A model generated the notes under the pieces. That model was not told the origin of the DNA. It saw nothing but the letters and a program-made list of their open reading frames with translations, and made no database searches. Of a DNA stretch of 33,627 bases, positions 14,867 to 28,836 are shown piece by piece (position 1 is the first letter of the stretch; every line of letters starts with the position of its first letter). Both the position numbers and the translations under genes were made by a program. This DNA is from Candidatus Pacearchaeota archaeon (GTDB lineage Archaea > Nanobdellota > Nanobdellia > Pacearchaeales > GW2011-AR1): positions 1 through 33,627 of the forward strand of contig JADHVH010000002.1 of assembly GCA_016784085.1 (NCBI GenBank), written 5' to 3'.

Positions 14867-15100
14867 TTATCTTCCCCCACAACCGCCACCACAACTTGAT
14901 CCTGTTGTTGCTCCACAATTAGATGATCCACAGTTATTTCCTGCAGTACATCCTCCTTGGGCTGCGTTAGGACAGCTTCCTGATTCACAAGACCCAGTAT
15001 AAGTATTATCCGTAGCATCTACACTTGTTATTGCTGCTGTTGCTAAACCTACTAGAACTAACAAGCCTACCATTATTGCTACTGTTACTAAAGTTTTCAT
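14867..15100 (-). CDS. exported Cys/Gly-rich peptide (77 aa, 8 Cys in the last 40 residues)
   Basis: Signal/TM segment MKTLVTVAIMVGLLVLVGLATAA, then GSCESGSCPNAAQGGCTAGNNCGSSNCGATTGSSCGGGCGGR. A GGAGGT Shine-Dalgarno-like box lies at 15110-15115 (plus-strand ACCTCC), 9 nt upstream of the ATG. Confidence 0.55.
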   Translation of the reverse strand: MKTLVTVAIMVGLLVLVGLATAAITSVDATDNTYTGSCESGSCPNAAQGGCTAGNNCGSSNCGATTGSSCGGGCGGR

Positions 15101-15118: not shown

Positions 15119-15811
15119 TTAATTTACTATAAATAAACCATTCATACTACTATGGCCATGACCACATGGAACATTACAATAAAAGCTAAACGTACCTTGT
15201 TTATTAGCTATAAATTCTATAGTTATTTGATCTCCTTGATTAATAAATTCATTTATTTCAAAATCATATAAGGCTATTCCATGGGCTCCTTCAACACTTT
15301 CAATATTTAGTATAACTTGATCTCCCAAATTAACTTCTATTTTATTTGGAGAAAAATCCCAATTATTTGCAACTATATCAAATTCTTTTATTTCCCCTGT
15401 TTCTTCTACATTTTGAACAAGATTTCTTCCACTTGATTGCCAGGTATTCATTCCCCCATCTAGATCATAAATATTAGTATAACCTAATTCTAATAATTGG
15501 TGTGCAGATATGGTAGACATTCTTCCACTTCTACAATAAATAGCAATAGGTGTTGATTTATCTTCTGGAAGTTGATCTAAATAAGAATCCATATTTTCCC
15601 AATTATACGCGTTTAAATCTGTTCCCTCAATCTCTCCAATATAAGGAGTATGGGCATTAATAACATATACTTCTTCAGAAGAAATTAATTGTTCAAATTG
15701 ATCTGAACTTACAGAATTAATTTTATTTGGGTTTAAAAATACAAAAAAGAAAATAAGGATTACTACAAGTAATCCCCCTATTAAAAAAAATAAGTTATTT
15801 TGTTTTTTCAT
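15119..15811 (-). CDS. membrane-anchored rhodanese domain fused to a CuA-type cupredoxin domain
   Basis: Rhodanese active-site loop YCRSGRMS. The C-terminal H-x34-C-x3-C-x3-H-x2-M (HGIAL...FYCNVPCGHGHSSM) has exactly the CuA ligand spacing of cytochrome oxidase subunit II and N2O reductase. The ATG at 15811 (MKKQNNLFFLIGG) follows the upstream stop by 1 nt. Confidence 0.8.
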   Translation of the reverse strand: MKKQNNLFFLIGGLLVVILIFFFVFLNPNKINSVSSDQFEQLISSEEVYVINAHTPYIGEIEGTDLNAYNWENMDSYLDQLPEDKSTPIAIYCRSGRMSTISAHQLLELGYTNIYDLDGGMNTWQSSGRNLVQNVEETGEIKEFDIVANNWDFSPNKIEVNLGDQVILNIESVEGAHGIALYDFEINEFINQGDQITIEFIANKQGTFSFYCNVPCGHGHSSMNGLFIVN

Positions 15812-15812
15812 C

Positions 15813-16235
15813 TTATAAACTAGGATATTTTTCCTCAATGATTCTTTCGATGGCCTCTAATTCACCTGTTTTTTCAGCTATAGCTTCTGCAAAATATTCT
15901 TTAAGATAAGGATTTCCATGACCTTCTAAAATTTCTCCAATACATTCTCCACAAGGATGAACTCCATTAACTAAATCTTCTAGACAACTACATTCAGCAC
16001 CTTCTCCATGTCCAGGTGATTTTTCAATACAATATGTGCATGGTTTTTCAAGACAACATCTATACATACCATTAGATAACATAGTTCCCTGGATAGATGT
16101 TTTTAATCCAATAAATTCTTCTCTTTGTTCAGTTACAGATGCACTACCTGGAGCTGTGAATATTGCTATTAAAATAGCTACTAAGAAAACAGCTGTGATT
16201 AGATAACCTCCTTTTTGTTTCATATTTTTCATCAT
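15813..16235 (-). CDS. exported Cys/His-rich protein (9 Cys), function unknown
   Basis: N-terminal TM/signal segment, then RCCLEKPCTYCIEKSPGHGEGAECSCLEDLVNGVHPCGECIGEILEGHG. ATGA overlap with the upstream gene. Confidence 0.55.
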   Translation of the reverse strand: MMKNMKQKGGYLITAVFLVAILIAIFTAPGSASVTEQREEFIGLKTSIQGTMLSNGMYRCCLEKPCTYCIEKSPGHGEGAECSCLEDLVNGVHPCGECIGEILEGHGNPYLKEYFAEAIAEKTGELEAIERIIEEKYPSL

Positions 16236-16687
16236 ATTTTCATAAATGTGGATGTTTTTCCATCTTTAATTGCATAAATTATCCATTGACCACTTTTAAT
16301 TCCAGGCATACCAGGACTACCTGCAGGCATATTTGGAAGAGAAATACCATCAATATCTGGTTGTTCTTCTAATAATTTATTTATAGCTTCAATTGGAATG
16401 TGTCCTTCAATAAAATAATCTCCCACAATAGCTGTATGACAACTTTCCATTGATCTTGGAATATTATATTCTTCTTTTATAGCCTGCATATCCTCAGTCA
16501 TTATTGTTTCTGTTAAAAATCCTTTATTTTGAATATAGGGGATCCATTTTGCACAACAACCACAATTAGCAGATTTATATACAGTCATAGGAATTTTATC
16601 ACTTACAACATTACCAGTAGAAACCACATAGGTTGTTGAAACAGCAATCAAAATTACAATTAAAATAAAAATATTTTTTCCATTCAT
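16232..16687 (-). CDS. copG: DUF411 / CopG-family copper-resistance metal-binding protein
   Basis: Contains YKSANCGCCAKW (the CxCC motif), ESCHTAIV, IEGHIP and NMPAGSPGMPG. Signal anchor at the N-terminus. Confidence 0.8.
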   Translation of the reverse strand: MNGKNIFILIVILIAVSTTYVVSTGNVVSDKIPMTVYKSANCGCCAKWIPYIQNKGFLTETIMTEDMQAIKEEYNIPRSMESCHTAIVGDYFIEGHIPIEAINKLLEEQPDIDGISLPNMPAGSPGMPGIKSGQWIIYAIKDGKTSTFMKI

Positions 16688-16861
16688 TTAACAACCACCA
16701 ACCATTCCACCATAACCACTTGCAGCTTGTTGTGCAGCAGCTTGACTAGCAGATAAAGTACTTTGAGCTGTTGCTGCAGATCCTTGAAAGAATACTACAT
16801 ATAAAACTAATATTCCTAAAATTCCAATAAGGCTCCACAATGCAATTTGTCTATTATCCAT
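16688..16861 (-). CDS. 57-aa single-pass membrane peptide ending in GGMVGGC
   Basis: The ATG at 16861 has a GGAGG box at 16872-16876. Sequence: MDNRQIALWSLIGILGILVLYVVFFQGSAATAQSTLSASQAAAQQAASGYGGMVGGC. The longer track start (16942) would overlap the upstream gene. Confidence 0.5.
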   Translation of the reverse strand: MDNRQIALWSLIGILGILVLYVVFFQGSAATAQSTLSASQAAAQQAASGYGGMVGGC

Positions 16862-16883
16862 ATTTATTTTTCCTCCGTTATTA

Positions 16884-17555
16884 TTAGCAGCCCCCAACCA
16901 TTCCTCCGCTTGTTTGACCTTTTTCAATATCTCTATAGTCATTAGATGTTAGGCTAATATAATCTGTAGATATTCCTTTACTAGCCATAATATCTGCCTT
17001 ACCCTGCATTATTCCTGGGAAAAATAATACTTTCCATTTTCCAACTTCTTCTAAGATTTCTTCATCAGTATATTCCTCTCCATGGTTTAAGATTAAATAT
17101 TTTGCAAGCCCCCTCATTGCATATGAATGAGCACAACCACATGCTGCTTGGCCATTTTCAAATATAATAGATCTAGCTCCACAACAATATTCACAAGAAA
17201 TTCCTCCGTGTGAAACATATAAGATATTAATATATCTCTCTAAGTCAGCACCTTCTAATGTTTCTGTCCTATCTATACTAGAAAGAAAGGAAATTGTTTG
17301 ATCTGCTAATTGAGGATCATTAGCACTCACAAAATCATAAGCAACACCTAATTCATCACCATATATTTCTGGAACGCCTGTTGGAATAATACTTGAAGCA
17401 GAAACTCCACTCTGTGAACTAGAATCTAATATAACATTAGAATTTGTTCCAAAATTAACATTAAATAATAATACTAAGATTAATACAGACAAAATAGCTA
17501 TTTGGCTATAAAATGTCAAATCGCTTTTTTTCACCTTGATTTTTTTTGTTTTCAT
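16884..17555 (-). CDS. exported Cys-rich protein (223 aa) ending in GGMVGGC
   Basis: N-terminal anchor, then the SCEYCCGARSIIFENGQAACGCAHSYAMRGL cluster and the C-terminal tail TSGGMVGGC. It is the first gene after the operator/TATA at 17573-17606. Confidence 0.6.
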   Translation of the reverse strand: MKTKKIKVKKSDLTFYSQIAILSVLILVLLFNVNFGTNSNVILDSSSQSGVSASSIIPTGVPEIYGDELGVAYDFVSANDPQLADQTISFLSSIDRTETLEGADLERYINILYVSHGGISCEYCCGARSIIFENGQAACGCAHSYAMRGLAKYLILNHGEEYTDEEILEEVGKWKVLFFPGIMQGKADIMASKGISTDYISLTSNDYRDIEKGQTSGGMVGGC

Positions 17556-17660: not shown

Positions 17661-19616
17661 TTAAATTCTTTTTCTTCTTAAGAGATTAGCATTGGCAATA
17701 ACTGTTATACTTGATAGGGCCATAGCAACTTCTGCAATCACCGGGTGTAAAACGCCTCCAACTGCAAGGGGAATTGCAACCACATTATAAGCAAATGCCC
17801 AGAATAAATTCTGTTTGATTTTTCCAAATGTTGCTTTACTCAATTCTATTGCTTGACAAACCCCTATTAAAGATCCTTTAGTAAGAACAATGTCTCCAGC
17901 CTCAATTGCAATATCTGTTCCAGTACCCATAGCAATTCCCACATTAGATTGTTTTAAAGCAGGGGCATCGTTTATACCATCTCCAACAAAAGCAACATAC
18001 GAATTACTTTTAGATTGAAGCCTCATTACAGCTTCTGATTTATCTCCAGGTAAAACATTTGCAATAACTTTCTTTATTCCAACTTCTTTAGCAATTGCTT
18101 GAGCAGTTTTTTCATTATCTCCTGTAATCATTACTGTAAAATAACCTTTCCTATGTAAATATTTCAATGCTGCAATAGAGTCTTCCTTAACAGAGTCTGC
18201 TACTGCAATTAAACCTAAAACCTTTTTATCTTTTTTAGAAGTCAAAATCATTACTGTTTTTCCTTGGCTTTCTAAGTGATCAATTTTCTTCACAAAATTC
18301 TTTAAACTAATTTTATTCTCTTTCATGAGTCTTTTATTTCCAATGATATATTTCTTACCCTGTATTGTTCCTTCAAGACCTCTTCCTAAAAGAGTTTTGA
18401 AATTTTTAACTAAACTATATTTTTTTAATTTTGAAAAATCAACTATTGCTTTTGAAAGAGGATGACTAGATAACTTTTCAAGACTTCCAGCAATTTTTAG
18501 AAATTTTTCTTTTTTAATACTTTTAGACAATTCAATATTGGTTACCTCTGGCTTACCTTTAGTTATAGTTCCTGTTTTATCAAAAGCTATAATTTTAATT
18601 TCTTTCATAGTTTGAATTGCTTCACCCTTTCTAATCAATATACCTCTTTTTGCACCCATTCCAGAACCAACAGTTAAGGCAATAGGTGTTGCTAAGCCCA
18701 AAGCACAAGGACAAGAAATTACTAAGACTGCTATAGATGCGCCAAAAGCATTATTCACATCTCCAAAAATCATCCATCCTATGAATGTTAGAATAGATAG
18801 GATTAATACTGAAGGAACAAATATATTTGTTATTTTATCTGCAAATTTTTGTATTGGAACCTTACTTCCCTGTGCATCTTCAACCAAATCAATTATATGT
18901 GCTAAAAAAGTATCTGAACCTATTTTTGTTGCTTTAACATAAAGAATTCCTTCTTGATTTATTGTAGCCCCTATAACATTATTTCCTTTTACCTTATCTA
19001 TAGGTAAGCTTTCTCCAGTAATCATAGATTCATCAACAGAACTTTGACCTTTAGTAACAATTCCATCTGTTGGAATTTTTTCACCAGGTTTAATAATCAT
19101 AATATCTCCAATTTTAACTTCTGAAATTGGGATTTCTACTTCCTTGCCATTTCTTATAACTGTAGCATTTTTCGCACCTAATTCTAATAGTTTTTTTATT
19201 TCTTGGCCAGCTCTCCCTCTTGCTTTAGATTCAATATATTTTCCAGTGATAAATATTGCCATTATCATTGCTGAAACTCCAGAATAATTTTCAAAACCAA
19301 AAATTAAACTAGCTATTCCTGTAAGATATGCTACAACTGTTCCAAGGGCAATTAAAGAATCCATATTAAAATAGAAGCTCAAGAAACCTCTAAATCCAGA
19401 TTTTAAAGTAGAAAATCCTACAATGAATATCACTGGAAAGGCAAAAATTAAAGTTAAAATTATAGTAATTTTTTCTTCAAATAACATTACTCCAAAAATC
19501 ATTGGAAGATACATTAATAAAATAAGGGGAATTGAAATTATCCAGCTCCAAAATAGTTTTCTCTTCCAACTATTAATTTCTTTTTCTTCTAAACTTTCTT
19601 CATTTTTGTGATCCAT
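17661..19616 (-). CDS. copA: P1B-1 type Cu(I)-exporting ATPase CopA (no fused N-terminal metal-binding domain)
   Basis: Contains [11 protein letters not shown] (CPC), [19 protein letters not shown], and the AFAYNVV (YN) and MALSSITV (MxxSS) copper-selectivity motifs. Confidence 0.95.
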
Positions 19617-19619
19617 TTT

Positions 19620-19832
19620 TTATTCAATTGAAGCTACTTTATATCCTGCTCTAGAAACAGCTTTCTTCAAATCATCTTGAGAAATATTTTCCTCTGCTTG
19701 AACAATTGCCTTATTTGTCATCATACTAACTCCTACAGATTCAACACCTTCAAGTTTATTCAAACTCTTCTCTATATTTAAAGCGCAAGAGGCACAATGC
19801 ATTCCTTCAATTTTTATTTTTATTTTTTTCAT
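19620..19832 (-). CDS. copZ: copper chaperone CopZ (HMA domain)
   Basis: MKKIKIKIEGMHCASCALNIEKSL carries the MxCxxC motif. Its ATG at 19832-19830 overlaps the upstream TGA (ATGA). Confidence 0.85.
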   Translation of the reverse strand: MKKIKIKIEGMHCASCALNIEKSLNKLEGVESVGVSMMTNKAIVQAEENISQDDLKKAVSRAGYKVASIE

Positions 19833-20203
19833 TTTACAATTAATGTTCCAACTCCCATTCCCATTGAACATGAAAACCTATAGGTTCCTTTTTTATTAGG
19901 AGTAAATTCAACATAATCATCAACATCTTTAAAATTTTTATATACTCCAAAATCTTTAATCACTAAAGATCTATAACATCCTCTTACTGTTTCATCTAAG
20001 TAGATTCTAACAGGTTGATTAACATTCACTTTTATAGTGTTTGGATTATAATTATAATTCTTCATACCAATAGTAATTTCTTGAACCCCTCCTGAACCTA
20101 AATTTCCAATAACATTCCCCATAATGGGAGAATCTTTTATTAAAAATAATCCAAATCCAACCACCAATAAAAACAGCACAAATAAAGCAATTTTATTTCC
20201 CAT
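19829..20203 (-). CDS. membrane-anchored cupredoxin-like domain protein (Cupredoxin_1 type often found next to copA)
   Basis: N-terminal anchor MGNKIALFVLFLLVVGFGLFLI, then YNPNTIKVNVNQPVRIYLDETVRGC ... GTYRFSCSMGMGVGTLIV. Confidence 0.7.
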   Translation of the reverse strand: MGNKIALFVLFLLVVGFGLFLIKDSPIMGNVIGNLGSGGVQEITIGMKNYNYNPNTIKVNVNQPVRIYLDETVRGCYRSLVIKDFGVYKNFKDVDDYVEFTPNKKGTYRFSCSMGMGVGTLIVK

Positions 20204-20204
20204 T

Positions 20205-20888
20205 TTACCCAAATAAAATACTCCTTGGCCCAAAGACCATAAACATAATTGTTATTAAGGTTAAAATTAAGCTTGCTAGTATAATTGGAAAATAATCTTC
20301 TTTAATTTCTCTTTCCCTTTCATACATTTCAAGATATACCATATAGTTAAGTGCAGCCATTATTGCTAAGGAAACTAAAAAGACTACTATTCCTGCTGCC
20401 CTAAGATGGTCATTTATCATCATAACTGCAGTCATAGCCCCCATTAATCCACCCATGAATCCAGACATCATTCCTTCCATTATTCCCATTATTCCGCAGC
20501 ATCTTCCGTTTTGAACTCCTAAAATAATCCCCACACTCATTCCAAATATACTTCCCCAAAACATCCCATTTGTAGCTGCAACATAATATCCTGCTAGAAA
20601 TCCTGAAATCATCCCAATAGTCATTCCAACCATCATTCCAGACATGCATGCAAATGTTTGATAAGCTTTAACCTGTCTTAGAGAAGGTAGAACAATAGCA
20701 TAACTTAAAATTGCAAAGAATATAAAAAACCCATATTTTGGAATAAAATTTTCAAAGTCTTTTAATCCTAAAAAATATAATACTATAAAAACAATAAATG
20801 AGGTAACTAAGGAATAGGTTACTGTTTTTATTATTTCACCTTCAACTCTAGAACCAGAGAGTTCTTTCACAAATTTTTTTGCAGACAT
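20205..20888 (-). CDS. polytopic Met/Gly-rich membrane protein, function unknown
   Basis: TM helices are loaded with Met: ACMSGMMVGMTIGMISGF and RCCGIMGIMEGMMSGFMGGLMGAMTAVMM. It is the first gene after the operator/TATA at 20911-20940. Confidence 0.6.
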   Translation of the reverse strand: MSAKKFVKELSGSRVEGEIIKTVTYSLVTSFIVFIVLYFLGLKDFENFIPKYGFFIFFAILSYAIVLPSLRQVKAYQTFACMSGMMVGMTIGMISGFLAGYYVAATNGMFWGSIFGMSVGIILGVQNGRCCGIMGIMEGMMSGFMGGLMGAMTAVMMINDHLRAAGIVVFLVSLAIMAALNYMVYLEMYEREREIKEDYFPIILASLILTLITIMFMVFGPRSILFG

Positions 20889-20940: not shown

Positions 20941-21576
20941 ATGTTTTTTATTAAACATATTATCTAATAAATGGCCCAAAATAATTAAAAATAAACCTAC
21001 AACTCCAATAATTAAAAAGAATGCAAGTTGGTATCTAAAATCTGCATATCCAAAATAAGAGGCCATAAATGCTTTTGGAATTATTCCTAAAAGACTAGCA
21101 TAAAAATATGGTTTAAATTTAACATTACTTAAGATTCCTAAAGCATAGCTTATTAAATCAACAGGAAAAATTATTCTTAATAAGAAGATACTCCAAAATT
21201 GATTTTCTTTAGGGATTTTATTTTCAAGTTTGTAAATATCTTTTAAAGGAATTATTTTTTTAACTAATGCAACTCCCCATTTTCTAGAGATAAAAAATAC
21301 TAATACAGATCCCAATGTCCAGGAGAAAACATTAATAATACTTGCATAAAAAGGACCCATCATTTGAGAAACAACTGGGATTAGAGGCATTGAACTAATT
21401 GGGGCAAAGACCATTGCTATTTGTCCAATAAGAATATATGCTAAAATTCCCCAATAACCATTTCCCAAGAATTTTTTAAAAAAATCTAAATTAGATTGAA
21501 CAATATAGGATATAGTTAAAAATATAACAATTATTATTAAAAGTTCAAGAAAATATTTTGTTTTTTCTGATTTCAT
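20938..21576 (-). CDS. TVP38/TMEM64 (DedA/SNARE-associated, VTT-domain) membrane protein
   Basis: Contains FAPISSMPLIPVVSQMMGPFYASIINVFSWTLGSVLVFFISRKWG, and the topology is typical of the family. Confidence 0.75.
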   Translation of the reverse strand: MKSEKTKYFLELLIIIVIFLTISYIVQSNLDFFKKFLGNGYWGILAYILIGQIAMVFAPISSMPLIPVVSQMMGPFYASIINVFSWTLGSVLVFFISRKWGVALVKKIIPLKDIYKLENKIPKENQFWSIFLLRIIFPVDLISYALGILSNVKFKPYFYASLLGIIPKAFMASYFGYADFRYQLAFFLIIGVVGLFLIILGHLLDNMFNKKH

Positions 21577-22058
21577 CTTCTTAAAACAACAATATTATTC
21601 ATTCCACGTCTTTTACGTTCTACAATTTGTTTAGCTTCAAGTTTATCAAGAAGTCGAGTAGTTTTAACCTTACCAATTTCAAGCTTTTCCATTAAAGTTT
21701 TTTGAAATATAGCTCCATTTTCTTTTTCAAGAAAGTTAACAACTCTTTTTTCATCTCTATCAAGTTTAGATTTATCAATTTTTTTTCTTTTTGCTTTAAT
21801 AGTTTTAGTTTTAACCACAATTTTTTCTTTAGGTTTTGTAAAGATCAAAACAATTGCAATAAGAACTAATAATCCAACAATAGCTAAAGCAAGATATGTT
21901 TGTTGATTTACTGTTTGACTCATTGGACAACTTAACGCATGTTCACCTGTACAACTTAATGAAACAACTTGTCTAAGTGCTTTTTGAAATAATAAAACAA
22001 TTGCGATTAATACTGCTGAAATTCCAAGCATGATATATCCTACATATTTATTTTCCAT
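21573..22058 (-). CDS. membrane-tethered winged-helix transcriptional regulator
   Basis: Two TM helices flank the loop SLSCTGEHALSCPMSQ. A basic linker follows, then a C-terminal wHTH (RVVNFLEKENGAIFQKTLMEKLEIGKVKTTRLLDKLEAKQIVERKRRG). Both neighbours overlap it. Confidence 0.65.
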   Translation of the reverse strand: MENKYVGYIMLGISAVLIAIVLLFQKALRQVVSLSCTGEHALSCPMSQTVNQQTYLALAIVGLLVLIAIVLIFTKPKEKIVVKTKTIKAKRKKIDKSKLDRDEKRVVNFLEKENGAIFQKTLMEKLEIGKVKTTRLLDKLEAKQIVERKRRGMNNIVVLRR

Positions 22059-22569
22059 TTTCTAAATTAAGATCTATTTTACATACAGTTGGCCTTGTTA
22101 ATAAAACTATTGCTGTAATTAAAAAAGCTGCAGAAATAAATTGCAATTCCAGACCATAAAGAGGTAGGCTACTTAGAGTTGCAGATATCCCAAATATCCC
22201 TATAAAAGCAGGAAAAAAACCTGCAAAGCAACCAGGACAAGCCCCCCCTAAAATTCCCCCAAAAACTCCTAAAATACCCAAGCCTTCTTCCCCTTTAGAA
22301 TTTATAGATTTCCAATCTTGGAATTTTATTGCAGTAAGGTTAATAGTTAATGCAATTAAAAACGGAATTAATAAAAAATTAAAAAATACAAAGGGAATCA
22401 AAAACCAAGCCTTAAATGAAGTAAATAAAGTTGGTAAAGTTGTCTTAAAATCATTTAAGAAAAAATTCAATAAAAGATATGCTAAAAAAATAATAATAAA
22501 AGAAAAAATATAGGGCTTTGTCAAAATAGATTTTTTTATAGCAAACTTCCTATTTTGATTTAGCCACAT
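22048..22569 (-). CDS. polytopic membrane protein with intramembrane CPGC motif
   Basis: About four TM helices. Contains GGILGGACPGCFAGFFPAFIGIFG. It starts 15 nt after the DsbA-like gene. Confidence 0.55.
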   Translation of the reverse strand: MWLNQNRKFAIKKSILTKPYIFSFIIIFLAYLLLNFFLNDFKTTLPTLFTSFKAWFLIPFVFFNFLLIPFLIALTINLTAIKFQDWKSINSKGEEGLGILGVFGGILGGACPGCFAGFFPAFIGIFGISATLSSLPLYGLELQFISAAFLITAIVLLTRPTVCKIDLNLENGK

Positions 22570-22583
22570 TTTAAAATAAAAAA

Positions 22584-23282
22584 TTAAACACCTGAAGTGA
22601 ATAAAGCATCATGCATACCCCAATAATCTCCTTGTTCTCCAGCACATCTAGCAGCTTCTGCAGCTTTTTGAGCTTTAGCATGGAAATTTAATGGAAAATC
22701 TTTGAACACCATTTTTACTTTTCCAGTATCAACATATTCAGATAATAGTTGTGGATAAGTTTGAGCAAAGTGTCTTCCACAATATGGGCATTCATAGTCT
22801 GAGAATTCAACAATTGTAACTGGAGCATTTGAATCTCCTTTTACAGGAGAATCTCCAATTTCAACATCAATTCTAGCCTCATTAGTTGCAGTTCCAGATA
22901 ATTCTTCTTCAATAATTTGTTGAAATACTGAGAAAGGTTGAGCACCAGATAAGATTCTTCCATTAATAAAAAAACCAGGTGTTCCTGAAATCCCTATACT
23001 TGAACCATATTGAAGATCTGCGGAAACATTTGAACTATATTTTCCAGAATTAACACATTCTTCAAAATCTTTTGTGTCTAATCCTAAATCATCAGCATAT
23101 TGAACATATTTTGTAACTCCTTCTAATTGAGTACCGCTATTATCATTTACAACTTGTCCACTTGGCCTTATAGCTATTACAAGAACAATTACAAACAGAG
23201 CTGCAAATAAAAAAGTCCCTGCCTTCCAAAGAGTATCTTTTTTGATACTTATTGTTTTTTCTTCTTTTTTATGTTCAGTCAT
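22584..23282 (-). CDS. membrane-anchored DsbA-family thiol:disulfide oxidoreductase (domain order appears circularly permuted)
   Basis: APVTIVEFSDYECPYCGRHF (CPYC) ... CAGEQGDYWGMHDALF lies at the C-terminus. The normally C-terminal LGLDTKDFEECVNSGKY ... GISGTPGFFINGRILSGAQP lies near the N-terminus. A GGAGG box sits upstream at 23291-23295. Confidence 0.8.
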   Translation of the reverse strand: MTEHKKEEKTISIKKDTLWKAGTFLFAALFVIVLVIAIRPSGQVVNDNSGTQLEGVTKYVQYADDLGLDTKDFEECVNSGKYSSNVSADLQYGSSIGISGTPGFFINGRILSGAQPFSVFQQIIEEELSGTATNEARIDVEIGDSPVKGDSNAPVTIVEFSDYECPYCGRHFAQTYPQLLSEYVDTGKVKMVFKDFPLNFHAKAQKAAEAARCAGEQGDYWGMHDALFTSGV

Positions 23283-23393: not shown

Positions 23394-23768
23394 TTACTTA
23401 AGAGTTTTATCTCTAACCAAAAGAAGATTATGTGTTAGATCTTTTTTTCCAGAAGGAATTTCTTGAACATCTTTTACTTGGGAATATTCCGGCATCGTTG
23501 TTTTAAATCTGGGAAAATATATTTCTCCTGAGTCAATCCAGAATGCAACCCTTTTATCACCGCTTGCAGTAGTATTTTTTTGGCCATGACAAACTCTTTC
23601 AAATTGACTATCCAACATTTCAGCAGCTTCTGTTTCTGTAGGAAACCTCCATTGTTCTCTTGCTAAAAAAGACCCTACATTAATAATGTCTCCTGCAGTT
23701 TTAAAATCATATGCTCCCGGAATTAAAAGAAATGCTTTATTCTCAGTATAAAATCTTAAGTTAGCCAT
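23394..23768 (-). CDS. hypothetical protein, weak DUF1566 (Lcl C-terminal)-like pattern
   Basis: EQWRFPTETEAAEML ... RVAFWIDSGEIYF ... LLLVRD resembles the WRLPT..EL / aW.v..G / vRcVR pattern of DUF1566. This is from memory only. Confidence 0.4.
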   Translation of the reverse strand: MANLRFYTENKAFLLIPGAYDFKTAGDIINVGSFLAREQWRFPTETEAAEMLDSQFERVCHGQKNTTASGDKRVAFWIDSGEIYFPRFKTTMPEYSQVKDVQEIPSGKKDLTHNLLLVRDKTLK

Positions 23769-23837
23769 AAAAAATTAATCAATCAAACCTTTTTAAGAAT
23801 TATTGCATTTCAAAATAGCATCATAAAAAACCAGTTT

Positions 23838-24296
23838 TTAATCCACTACCTCTATTAATTCAGATTTAGAGATTTTTTCCAATCTTCCCTTAGTTTCTGC
23901 TAGTTTAGATTGAGTATCTGAGAAAATTTTTATATTACTCCAGGCATCTTCTTCTTCATTTTCAAGACCTTGAGTCACATTTGAATAACGCAAGTTAACA
24001 AAAGAACCAAATAAATAAACTATATCTTCATCTGAGCCATATTTTGCTTTTCCATAACCCCCTTGAGAGGTGGATCTTTCAGTAAGCAAGTGAACTATAT
24101 TATTTGAAGAGTTTTCTAAAACATCATAACCTCTACTAACCCCATGATAAGTTCCCTTTACCAAACAGTTAATTTTTTGGGTTGAAGCAAGGCTCCATTT
24201 ATAATTAAATAATTTCAAGGCGGGAGAACCCTTTAAAGAGTACTTTTTCATGAGAAAAGGATTATCTATTTTTTGAATTTGTTTTTGATTTTCCAT
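23838..24296 (-). CDS. hypothetical protein (152 aa)
   Basis: ORF in a tight co-directional array, 5 nt after the upstream gene. I recognise no motif. Confidence 0.45.
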   Translation of the reverse strand: MENQKQIQKIDNPFLMKKYSLKGSPALKLFNYKWSLASTQKINCLVKGTYHGVSRGYDVLENSSNNIVHLLTERSTSQGGYGKAKYGSDEDIVYLFGSFVNLRYSNVTQGLENEEEDAWSNIKIFSDTQSKLAETKGRLEKISKSELIEVVD

Positions 24297-24301
24297 TTTA
24301 A

Positions 24302-24580
24302 TTACGCTCTTTTTCCTGCCTTTCGATAAAGGTTTAAATCATCTCTTGGAACATAAATAAACATTGTTCCCTGATAATCAATATTTTTTAGAATATTTTG
24401 CATAGAATTGTTTCTTTCCTCATAGAATTTCCCTTTTGGTTTTGTAGCCAATACAATTCCTTCTGTTTCTGCAAAAGCTATCCAATGATCTAATAATCCT
24501 TCTAGTTTCCCCATATTAAGCATTTCCTGAAATACCCTATAATGGGGTGATTTTTGCATTTGCCATTCTGTTTTTGTCAT
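24302..24580 (-). CDS. hypothetical protein (92 aa)
   Basis: ORF starting 1 nt after the upstream stop. I recognise no motif. Confidence 0.45.
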   Translation of the reverse strand: MTKTEWQMQKSPHYRVFQEMLNMGKLEGLLDHWIAFAETEGIVLATKPKGKFYEERNNSMQNILKNIDYQGTMFIYVPRDDLNLYRKAGKRA

Positions 24581-24581
24581 T

Positions 24582-24881
24582 TTAATTGTCCACCATTTCT
24601 CCTTTACTATTATAGTGTGTTGTTGCTATTGGTTTTTGATTTCCATCAATCCAAACTAAATCTGTAACCCAATAATATGCATTGTCAAATCCACCACCAC
24701 CAATATTTACCTCTGTAAAATCAGGTTCTTTAATTCCCAAATGGTTTAATTTTAGTTTATAGTAGGGGGCTCTTTCCTTTTTTCTATCCCTTGAAATTAA
24801 ATTTTCTGCTAAACCTACAACTTTTTCAAGTTGGGAAGTTGTTATTTTCTTCAAGTTTATATTTATTCTATGATCTCTCAT
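24582..24881 (-). CDS. hypothetical protein (99 aa)
   Basis: First ORF of the four-gene array, divergent from the TrmB gene. I recognise no motif. Confidence 0.45.
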   Translation of the reverse strand: MRDHRININLKKITTSQLEKVVGLAENLISRDRKKERAPYYKLKLNHLGIKEPDFTEVNIGGGGFDNAYYWVTDLVWIDGNQKPIATTHYNSKGEMVDN

Positions 24882-27990: not shown

Positions 27991-28836
27991 TTAGAAAGAA
28001 TCTAGAGGACTTTGAATATTTATTAATTTTGGTGAAGAAATATGTGTGTATATTAAAGTTGTTTCAGGGGATTTATGCCCAAGAATTGCCTGAACATTTG
28101 AAAGAGAAAAACCATTTTCAATTAAATGCGTTGCAAAGGAATGCCTTAATGTGTGAGTGTGGATTTCCTTCCAATTTTTTAAATTTGCTGTTTTAGAAGA
28201 TTTTTTAATTATTTGTTGAATAGTTCTTATTGAATATTTTTTGTTTCTATCACTTTTAAAAAGAAAATCATTTTCAATTAGATGTTCTTTGTTTATTAGT
28301 TTCTCTATGTTTTTAATTATTTTAGTTGGAATAATAATTAATCTATCTTTTCCACCCTTTCCATTCCTAACATAACCATAATTATCTTCTAATTTTAAAT
28401 CTTTTAATTTAAGATTAATTAATTCACTAACTCTTAATCCACTTCCATACATAAATTCTATCATTAATTTATGTTTTTCATTTGAAATAGAATTTATCAA
28501 TTTTTCAATCTCTTTTTTAGATAAAACAATAGGTAATCTTCTTGGAACTTTTGAATATTTAATATTAATCCAAATTCTTTTTTCTAAAACCTCTTCAAAA
28601 AGAAATCTTATAGCCATGTGGTATGTGTTTAGAGTATTTCCAGCTTTATTTTCATTAGCCAATTTTTCCAAAAATAATCTAACATCTTTTTTAGATATTT
28701 TTCCTAGTTCTTTATTGCAATATTTCAAAAATTTATTAATGCAATAAATATATGTCTTTGCAGTTCTTGGACTTAATCGTCTTCTTTTGCATTTATTAGT
28801 CACTGCTTTTTCTATATCTATTGGATAGTAGGACAT
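27991..28836 (-). CDS. tyrosine site-specific recombinase, Xer/XerA-like
   Basis: Catalytic residues are readable: GLRVSE (Arg), HTLRHSFATH (H-x-x-R), LGHKS (His) and TLIYTH (Tyr). The 281-aa size matches the archaeal Xer type. Confidence 0.88.
   Translation of the reverse strand: MSYYPIDIEKAVTNKCKRRRLSPRTAKTYIYCINKFLKYCNKELGKISKKDVRLFLEKLANENKAGNTLNTYHMAIRFLFEEVLEKRIWINIKYSKVPRRLPIVLSKKEIEKLINSISNEKHKLMIEFMYGSGLRVSELINLKLKDLKLEDNYGYVRNGKGGKDRLIIIPTKIIKNIEKLINKEHLIENDFLFKSDRNKKYSIRTIQQIIKKSSKTANLKNWKEIHTHTLRHSFATHLIENGFSLSNVQAILGHKSPETTLIYTHISSPKLINIQSPLDSF

Follow-up and report, generated by a model that had tools for sequence, protein, structure and literature searches.

Why do two neighbouring and otherwise unrelated proteins end in the same seven amino acids? 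The question is raised by a 33,627-nucleotide stretch of the genome of a Candidatus Pacearchaeota archaeon (assembly GCA_016784085.1, contig JADHVH010000002.1, positions 1 to 33,627; hereafter the window), on the minus strand of which a 223-aa open reading frame (ORF), gene A, ends in ...TSGGMVGGC and the next, 57-aa ORF, gene B, in ...GYGGMVGGC. We find that this C-terminal tail is conserved and strictly terminal, that it is essentially restricted to four protein families of a single gene island with copper-linked genes, and that the tails of neighbouring proteins tend to match each other. It probably serves as a tag for docking and hand-off, of a kind not described before. In the reading that we favour, to which we assign a probability of about 0.45, it would be a flexible extracytoplasmic arm by whose single terminal thiolate Cu(I) or a thiol is handed off into a docking site common to the partners.

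An identical heptapeptide encoded by different codons

The initial annotation of the window had reported that GGMVGGC closes both proteins and that four of its seven codons differ between the two genes. Direct reading of the minus strand bears this out: the end of gene A reads GGA GGA ATG GTT GGG GGC TGC TAA (16907-16884) and that of gene B reads GGT GGA ATG GTT GGT GGT TGT TAA (16711-16688). Among the 62 window ORFs of at least 50 aa, A and B are the sole pair with more than three C-terminal residues in common, and about 8e-6 pairs sharing a heptapeptide would be expected in the window by chance. A search for the tail in all remaining ORFs and frames of the window found none besides these two. 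The window has a GC content of 29.7% and carries archaeal markers, and the top homologues of A are from genome bins labelled Nanoarchaeota, Pacearchaeota and Woesearchaeota. The terminal Cys codon of A is directly followed by three in-frame TAA codons in succession (16878-16886, minus strand), which may merely reflect the AT-rich genome.

In a 90%-clustered protein collection, 1965 homologues of A were found, and all of the best 120 (58–100% identity) terminate in M-[VI]-G-x-C or, in its fuller form, x-S-G-x-M-[VI]-G-x-C. The second set consisted of 83 A proteins, selected on homology whatever their tail, from 81 distinct genome loci, namely 80 loci of the genome scan and the window itself; flanks of up to 10 kb were taken and many of the loci end at contig ends. 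The last five positions of these proteins are M in 82, V in 80, G in 83, G in 75 and C in 83 cases, and the stop codon directly follows the Cys in every one of them. A word-index homology search with the 57-aa B sequence retrieved three near-identical proteins only; B orthologues were recovered from the DNA beside A orthologues. MVGGC is invariant in 78 such B-type peptides and in 22 peptides of a paralogous type, T, which is described below. Absence of the tail from orthologues, which the initial annotation had named as an observation that would speak against it, is thus not what is found, as every orthologue examined has the tail.

The codons of the tail are diversified, with all four Val codons, all four Gly codons and both Cys codons in use. 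Within a locus, the tails of A and B are identical at 1.63 of 4 synonymous third positions, compared with 1.43 +/- 0.09 in shuffled pairs. Since the codons have diversified and tails from one locus resemble each other no more than shuffled pairs do, the identity is maintained by selection at the peptide level, and recent duplication or gene conversion as its source is rejected on these codon statistics. The same view had been taken from the window itself by the initial annotation, and the conservation in orthologues together with the codon statistics now upholds it.

Restriction of the tail to four protein families

Every stop-to-stop ORF in the loci was tested for a C-terminal M[VIL]GxC. The motif ends 180 ORFs; 53 loci have two of them, 20 have three and two have four. 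A small, membrane-anchored and tail-bearing partner, either B or its paralogue T, adjoins A on the same strand in 75 of the 81 loci, and a B-type peptide lies beside A in 68 of them. Members of the B family consist of a membrane helix, a Ser/Ala/Gly/Gln-rich linker (median 25 residues, range 13–58) and the tail, and in most of them, B of the window included, the terminal Cys is the sole Cys. Peptides of the T family, none of which is encoded in this window, are B-like with an inserted, highly conserved Met/His motif, G-W-T-E-N-E-I-M-N-Y-E-M-H-G-T-I-P-A-R. The fourth family, A2, is a paralogue of A with a length of 230–295 aa and the signature GISCE[FY]CCG...CGCxHNP...WKTLFFPK...LPGMVGGC; it has a small partner of its own, ending in [DN]-L-P-x-M-V-G-G-C. 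Searches of Pfam and NCBIfam with B, T and A2 returned no families.

A frame-blind scan of metagenome DNA for GGNATGGTNGGNGGNTGYTAA gave at least 120 stretches. The matches listed contain 151 in-frame tails, of which 43 belong to A, 50 to B, 24 to T and 18 to A2 (the last confirmed by the Cys motif), while the others are a few A- or A2-type ends cut by contig ends and, for the rest, ORFs of 8–37 codons, mostly on GC-rich contigs, that represent chance matches. No substrate-binding protein, protease, S-layer protein or similar protein with the tail was present among the metagenome matches listed. A scan of viral contigs gave a single match, also due to chance: the ORF has 33 codons and its contig a GC content of 55%. 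The motif is therefore not a common accident of Gly-rich termini, a possibility that the initial annotation had kept in mind, and is essentially limited to four families of one gene cluster. Such confinement indicates a system-specific tag and not a general sorting or anchoring signal. A role as a general C-terminal sorting signal, the alternative offered in the initial annotation, is not supported by the metagenome matches listed; nothing follows the Cys, and no conserved peptidase or transpeptidase was found near A in the 81 loci. RNA data were sought as transcript evidence, and the runs found were of metagenomic DNA only (marine and estuary). Full-text literature searches for MVGGC and QVGGC, and for PCYCGC, DUF411/CopG and copper in DPANN archaea, retrieved no description of the motif.

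Variation of the tail and matching between partners

In an exhaustive HMMER search of 1.84 billion representatives, the superfamily of A was resolved into 267 clusters at 50% identity. The tails in the best 150 of these 267 clusters are MVGGC (71), QVGGC (27), MVG[SAD]C (10), M[AR]GGC (4) and W[VA]G[DE]C (3), the remainder being mostly fragments. The invariant core of the tail is V-G-G-Cys-COOH, and position -5 is M or Q, rarely W. Named members belong to Micrarchaeia and Burarchaeum and nearly all genome bins are from DPANN, so that the family looks DPANN-wide; a relative is encoded in at least 323 of the species-representative genomes scanned.

Five Q-type A proteins, fetched as representatives of the Q-type family, were traced to their contigs, and in all five cases the adjoining small peptide also ends in QVGGC. 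The Q state is scattered over a neighbour-joining tree of A domains, with about 20 inferred changes. When all loci are considered, the residues at position -5 of A and its partner pair as M/M in 174 cases, Q/Q in five, Q/M in four and G/M in two. Strict co-variation of A and B at this position is rejected, as two loci (L024 and L198) pair a Q-tailed A with M-tailed partners, and it is because of such pairs that only partial co-variation, strong and not strict, is claimed here. A second correspondence concerns position -7, where the partner has Pro in 27 of the 27 pairs in which A has L-P or I-P at -8/-7 and in 29 of the 158 other pairs; the matching Pro of the partner is nearly always part of [DN]-L-P. 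Such joint change of a shared 8–9-residue linear motif in two unrelated proteins would be expected if a single binding site reads both. The conserved unit, (L-P-x)-[M/Q]-V-G-G-C, resembles a docking peptide whose terminal Cys is reactive more than it does a simple chelator made of Met and Cys.

Predicted topology and structure of A and B

The N-terminus of A is rich in Lys, with hydrophobic residues at about 15–33 and a membrane helix modelled at residues 10–33. A Lys/Arg-rich stretch, MKTKKIKVKKSD in A, precedes the anchor helix; B peptides have on average 2.25 Lys or Arg among the eight residues before the helix. Because of these segments, an N-in, C-out topology is predicted, which would place the tails outside the cell.

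In the AlphaFold2 model of A (mean predicted local distance difference test score, pLDDT, 86; predicted template modelling score 0.74), the anchor is followed by a spacer with pLDDT of 41–45, and the invariant cluster of five Cys and one His residue (Cys5-His cluster) is located on a short beta-hairpin, with short strands at residues 119–137. The last 13 residues, tail included, have pLDDT of 77–87, which suggests that the model sets the tail against the domain and does not leave it disordered. No match to A was found in Pfam or NCBIfam, and a Foldseek search with the model against the PDB returned nothing at E < 1; as modelled, A is an undescribed helical fold. When B is modelled alone, residues 3–26 form a helix (pLDDT 81–91) and the tail has pLDDT of 52.

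Gene neighbourhood and its link to copper

The island in which A and B reside usually begins with a membrane-anchored winged helix-turn-helix regulator, which in most genomes lies directly upstream of A. It is followed by A, in some cases T, B, DUF411, a polytopic membrane protein with a signal and an HCPLC motif and further small membrane proteins with Cys or Met/His motifs, and at the distal end by a Met-rich membrane protein with a cupredoxin, a P1B ATPase with an HMA protein, or both. DUF411 is present in 52 of the 81 loci, in each downstream of A and B, the regulator in 50, the ATPase in 19 and a cupredoxin in 12, and at least one copper-linked gene is found in 60. The window contains a rarer variant of the cluster, A, B, DUF411 and a 140-aa Cys-rich protein, known from eight loci, and here this variant is situated directly downstream of the ATPase (Table 1). 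The CPC, YN and MxxSS motifs of the latter are the Cu(I) signature of P1B-1 pumps. The pair of a cupredoxin and a Met-rich membrane protein recurs in 10–12 related loci, with the Met-rich protein always paired with the cupredoxin.

Table 1. Coordinates of the tail-bearing genes, of their features and of neighbouring genes in the window
Feature	Position	Strand	Basis
Gene A, 223 aa: N-terminal anchor, disordered spacer, helical ectodomain (predicted) and C-terminal tail	16884..17555	-	ORF; homologues; AlphaFold2 model
Invariant Cys5-His cluster of A (C121, C124, C125, C139, C141, H143; CEYCCG..x13..CGCAH)	17127..17195	-	60-sequence alignment
Tail of A, GGMVGGC	16887..16907	-	core M219-V-G-G-C223, last five residues of A
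GGAGG ribosome-binding site of B	16872..16876	-	10 nt upstream of the B ATG (16861)
Gene B, 57 aa: membrane helix, Ser/Ala/Gln linker, tail GYGGMVGGC	16688..16861	-	ORF; terminal Cys the sole Cys
Tail of B, GGMVGGC	16691..16711	-	direct reading of the minus strand
DUF411 (CopG-like) protein, CGCC motif; its ATG abuts the B stop	16232..16687	-	Pfam PF04214, E = 9.5e-25
Anchored Cys-rich protein, 140 aa (CCLEKPCTYCIEK..C.C..HPCGEC), member of the variant cluster	15813..16235	-	ORF; same position in 8 loci; no Pfam match
Anchored rhodanese (CRSGRMS loop) fused to cupredoxin, CuA-type C-x3-C-x3-H-x2-M	15119..15838	-	Pfam Rhodanese, Cupredoxin_1
Anchored Gly/Cys-rich peptide, 77 aa, 8 Cys, ending in GGGCGGR (different tail class)	14867..15100	-	ORF; ..GGGCGR relatives in other loci
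P1B-type ATPase of the Cu(I) type (transmembrane motifs CPC, YN and MxxSS)	17661..19616	-	Pfam E1-E2_ATPase, Hydrolase; motifs from translation
CopZ-like HMA protein, 83 aa, MHCASC	19620..19871	-	Pfam HMA, E = 4.6e-16
Anchored cupredoxin	19829-20233	-	Pfam Cupredoxin_1
Met-rich polytopic membrane protein, CC pair	20205-20888	-	no Pfam family
Membrane-anchored winged-helix regulator (DUF7343/MarR-like)	21573..22058	-	Pfam; 50/81 loci

Related loci add further genes to this set, namely CopY-type repressors (Penicillinase_R), COX2-like cupredoxins, DsbA and thioredoxin-repeat proteins, glutaredoxin-like genes, DsbD_TM and small peptides with Met/His motifs; micrarchaeal loci carry CopY-like repressors, a COX2-like cupredoxin, thioredoxin repeats and DsbD_TM. 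Judged by its gene content, the island joins copper handling with extracytoplasmic thiol maintenance. Of the proposal in the initial annotation that the tail is a tag for Cu(I) binding or hand-off, the connection to copper has stood, being seen in the P1B ATPase with CPC, the HMA protein, DUF411, the cupredoxins and the Met-rich membrane proteins, and the role of Met as an obligatory ligand has not.

A possible hand-off role and its alternatives

Placing the tail in a functional class of Cu(I)-transfer tails would rest on genomic context. The mechanism that we favour is the following. The tail would act as a short docking peptide at the outer face of the membrane, where a flexible arm offers a single Cys thiolate next to the free carboxylate. 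B and T may be minimal tethered carriers that collect Cu(I), for instance as it leaves the CPC-type ATPase. The tail of A itself would fill, in cis, a site beside the Cys5-His cluster, and the tails of B and T would replace it there in trans. The metal, or a disulfide, could then pass to A by ligand or thiol exchange and onward to proteins of the DUF411/CopG and cupredoxin types, with the thioredoxin- and DsbA-like neighbours keeping the thiols reduced. The purpose might be detoxification after export by the ATPase or metallation of CuA-type cupredoxins. Donor and acceptor would bear the same tail because the same docking site is used.

Several points weigh against this hand-off reading. It is built from sequence, gene context and predicted structures, and the putative contact between the tail of A and its Cys cluster is read from pLDDT values. 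The co-variation counts at positions -5 and -7 are not phylogenetically independent. Gln stands in for Met in 27 of the best 150 clusters, and a Q-tailed A may be accompanied by an M-tailed B, so that Met is not an obligatory ligand; a lone Cys by itself binds Cu(I) only weakly. Rather than to chelation, the extended L-P motif points to a protein, a putative receptor, that recognizes the tail. Many loci, some of them truncated, are without DUF411 and the ATPase. Finally, the island is equally rich in thioredoxin-like proteins, and a purely redox role would fit equally.

The last point leads to the first alternative, in which the tail is a redox arm and not a metal carrier. Its terminal Cys would enter mixed disulfides, whether with the Cys cluster of A, in a link of A to B or with partners of the thioredoxin or DsbA type, and copper would be involved only indirectly in what is extracytoplasmic management of thiols and disulfides. 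We consider this unlikely but worth keeping in view. DsbA-like, thioredoxin-repeat, glutaredoxin-like and DsbD_TM genes do recur in the island, there is a CxxC(C) motif in A, the tail can do without Met at -5 and the docking-peptide character of the tail would suit recognition between an enzyme and its substrate. However, the most constant neighbours are DUF411/CopG and the other copper-linked genes (60 of 81 loci), and the Met/His motif of T is typical of extracytoplasmic copper sites. As for the thioredoxin-like proteins, they are also needed to keep copper-binding thiols reduced, and their presence therefore does not separate a redox from a copper role.

Less probable again is a C-terminal signal for modification or anchoring, in which the lipobox-like V-G-G-C would have its Cys lipidated or otherwise modified and the C-terminus would be tied to the membrane or envelope. 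The tail fits a lipobox of the form [LVI][ASTVIG][GAS]C, genuine N-terminal lipoboxes in the same loci are similar (VGC, AGC), the motif is strictly terminal and invariant, and one cluster has a gene for lipoprotein biogenesis, AliA/AliB, at a distance of 4 kb. Yet no h-region of a signal peptide precedes the motif and no residue comes after the Cys, and the tail is kept to four families of one operon instead of being spread over many surface proteins. A transferase or peptidase conserved in the vicinity is likewise missing from the loci, and B, reduced to two anchors, would have no obvious role. A linkage to the archaeal lipoprotein machinery was considered and rejected: across 1.6 Mb of flanks, AliA/AliB occurs at one distinct locus, of which there are two copies. 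Were the Cys nevertheless modified, a new type of C-terminal protein modification in archaea would be at hand.

The terminal Cys might also be a persulfide (sulfane sulfur) carrier that is charged by an extracytoplasmic rhodanese and delivers sulfide, for example for the formation of Cu-S clusters or the precipitation of copper sulfide. The operon of the window does encode a rhodanese whose CRSGRMS loop is intact and to which a CuA-type cupredoxin is fused, and in other loci a rhodanese is fused to the HCPLC membrane protein. The idea is nonetheless quite improbable, as a rhodanese is present in only about 12 of the 81 loci when the tails are universal, and no other gene of the cluster hints at sulfur trafficking. 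Lastly, the Gly-rich character of both tails and the adjacency of the genes might have pointed to a chance resemblance of low-complexity Gly-rich ends, or to gene conversion or a local duplication of recent date. This explanation is refuted by the chance expectation given above, by the retention of the tail across the 267 clusters and by the codons, which are diversified and within a locus no closer than in shuffled pairs.

Consequences of the hand-off reading

If the tail is indeed a hand-off plug, donor and acceptor would be wired in a very simple way, by a shared linear motif instead of a shared domain. A role would be gained for the 'hypothetical' families A, A2, B and T, for which there are no Pfam models, and VGGC ends would become a search handle for small ORFs that gene callers often miss. 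DPANN archaea, for all the smallness of their genomes, keep this multi-gene island in at least 323 of the species representatives scanned.

A more far-reaching version, which we regard as doubtful, takes the 5–8-residue (LPx)[M/Q]VGG-Cys-COOH as a 'tail code', a universal plug for a single receptor site, at which unrelated extracytoplasmic proteins of DPANN archaea would dock to exchange Cu(I) or a thiol equivalent; this would be a new principle, including a chaperone made of a peptide only. B, with its 50–70 aa and nothing but anchor, tether and plug, would then be smaller than any metallochaperone-like device described so far and would amount to an N-acyl-cysteine tethered to the membrane, and A would be a metal-cluster protein of the Cys5-His type with a new fold.

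Comparison with known systems

By analogy, the tail would be a shared-motif device for metal or thiol hand-off, closest in its working to the CopZ/CopA pair and to flexible Cys arms. CopZ and the N-terminal HMA domain of CopA (MxCxxC) resemble the tail pair in that the same Cys motif is found on the donor and the acceptor of one copper operon, which dock and exchange Cu(I) ligands; an HMA protein and an ATPase of this kind are present in the window itself. The HMA domain, however, is a folded beta-alpha-beta-beta-alpha-beta structure of about 70 aa with two Cys in the cytoplasm, whereas the tail is an unstructured segment of 5–8 residues with one Cys and is predicted to lie outside. No Pfam match to HMA (PF00403) was obtained with A or B, and with one Cys in the tail and a helical model of A there is no relation in sequence or fold.

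Flexible C-terminal Cys arms are found in CCS (domain 3, CXC), MerA (a C-terminal Cys pair), thioredoxin reductase (GCUG) and Ctr1 (HCH). As proposed for the tail, a short mobile C-terminal segment moves between the surface and a site that is buried or lies on a partner, and takes a soft ligand or a redox group with it. Unlike the tail, these arms carry two Cys, selenocysteine or His residues, belong to one protein family each and are not shared by unrelated partners, and we know of none among the four that ends in an obligatory terminal Cys after V-G-G.

The CopG/DUF411 protein is a periplasmic Cys-rich copper protein. It is like A in being extracytoplasmic and in its CxCC-type Cys motif, to be compared with CxxCC and CxCxH in A, but it is thioredoxin-like whereas A is modelled as a new helical fold, and the DUF411 proteins of the island are without the tail. 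Neither A nor B matches DUF411 (PF04214), and the members of the A alignment do not match PCYCGC (PF13798). A relationship between A and PCYCGC is also rejected by profile comparison, since hhalign of the A profile with the PCYCGC protein that lies beside A in one micrarchaeal locus (L207) gave a probability of 0.2%. The same holds for the 140-aa neighbour of A and B, for which the comparison with PCYCGC gave E = 0.9.

With respect to lipoboxes, V-G-G-C meets the pattern [LVI][ASTVI][GAS]C, but a lipobox is placed behind a signal peptide at the N-terminus, and the mature protein begins with its Cys at +1. The tail Cys, by contrast, ends the chain in 83 of 83 A proteins and, in B, comes 13–58 residues after the anchor helix. 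LPXTG, PGF-CTERM, GlyGly-CTERM and MYXO-CTERM are, like the tail, short C-terminal motifs common to unrelated exported proteins, and some tails read L-P-x-x-V-G-G-C. In these known sorting domains, however, a transmembrane helix and a basic tail follow and many proteins are tagged per genome, whereas here the protein stops at the Cys. The immediate stop and the assignment of the 151 listed tails to A, A2, B, T or chance set the tail apart from substrates of sortases, archaeosortases and rhombosortases. It also differs from CaaX and Rab-type prenylation boxes of cytoplasmic proteins, as its single Cys is at the very end and neither at -4 nor part of a CC or CXC terminus and the predicted topology is N-in, C-out, and from ubiquitin-like and ThiS-MoaD carriers, as A is helical in the model, B is a helix with a linker, no beta-grasp is seen and the end is Cys and not Gly-Gly.

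Other Cys-containing tails of the island

The initial annotation had described the last gene of the operon as ending in a related sequence, GGGCGGR. The sequence is correct (14867..15100), the relationship is not, as the 77-aa peptide belongs to a separate conserved class. Similar anchor-plus-linker peptides, ending in ..Y(A/G)GGGCGR, occur in six other loci (L020, L037, L045, L056, L169 and L182), and lipoprotein-like peptides ending in ..PSGPIGGGC(G) adjoin A2 genes. The ..GGGCGR and ..GGGC(G) ends are the second and third classes of Gly-Cys C-terminal tails in the island. Moreover, CCK[KE]W ends two unrelated families that are alternatives in the slot after the HCPLC membrane protein, one of polytopic membrane proteins and one of soluble helical proteins; they are present in 26 and 21 loci, with examples in L054 (8765-9202) and L029 (7929-8414).

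Variant loci and neighbouring elements

In Micrarchaeia and Burarchaeum, a CopY/BlaI-type repressor (Penicillinase_R) replaces the anchored winged-helix regulator (L207, 5077-5986; L211, 2380-2766; L212, 6519-7652), and some of these clusters also contain an M48/M56 BlaR-like peptidase and, once, a protein of the PCYCGC family. Six A-bearing loci (L045, L050, L051, L058, L071 and L072) are from bins labelled 'bacterium', Saccharibacteria, Yanofskybacteria or Methanosarcinales. In three of them (L050, L051 and L072), A is without a B partner and the order is DUF411, HCPLC, CCKKW, A, ATPase.

The rhodanese-cupredoxin protein of the window (15119-15838, minus strand) matches the C-terminal domains of NosZ and CoxB, and the sequence CNVPCGHGHSSM fits the CuA motif perfectly. 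In a DPANN archaeon one would not expect a CuA-type domain; to our knowledge, DPANN are generally regarded as being without a respiratory chain. Upstream of the regulator, on the same strand, a polytopic membrane protein with GGILGGACPGC inside a helix (22048-22569) has no Pfam family and is found in 15 related loci. It is preceded by a DsbA-like ORF (22584-23282) with permuted Pfam matches, in that residues 59–124 correspond to the C-terminal part of DSBA and residues 144–230 to the N-terminal part of Thioredoxin_4, after which the ORF ends abruptly; this arrangement suggests that two partial DsbA genes have fused or that a tandem pair has been truncated. Four small ORFs (23394-24881, minus strand) are located about 3 kb from a tyrosine recombinase-like ORF (27991-28836, minus strand), with which they may form a small integrated element beside the metal island.

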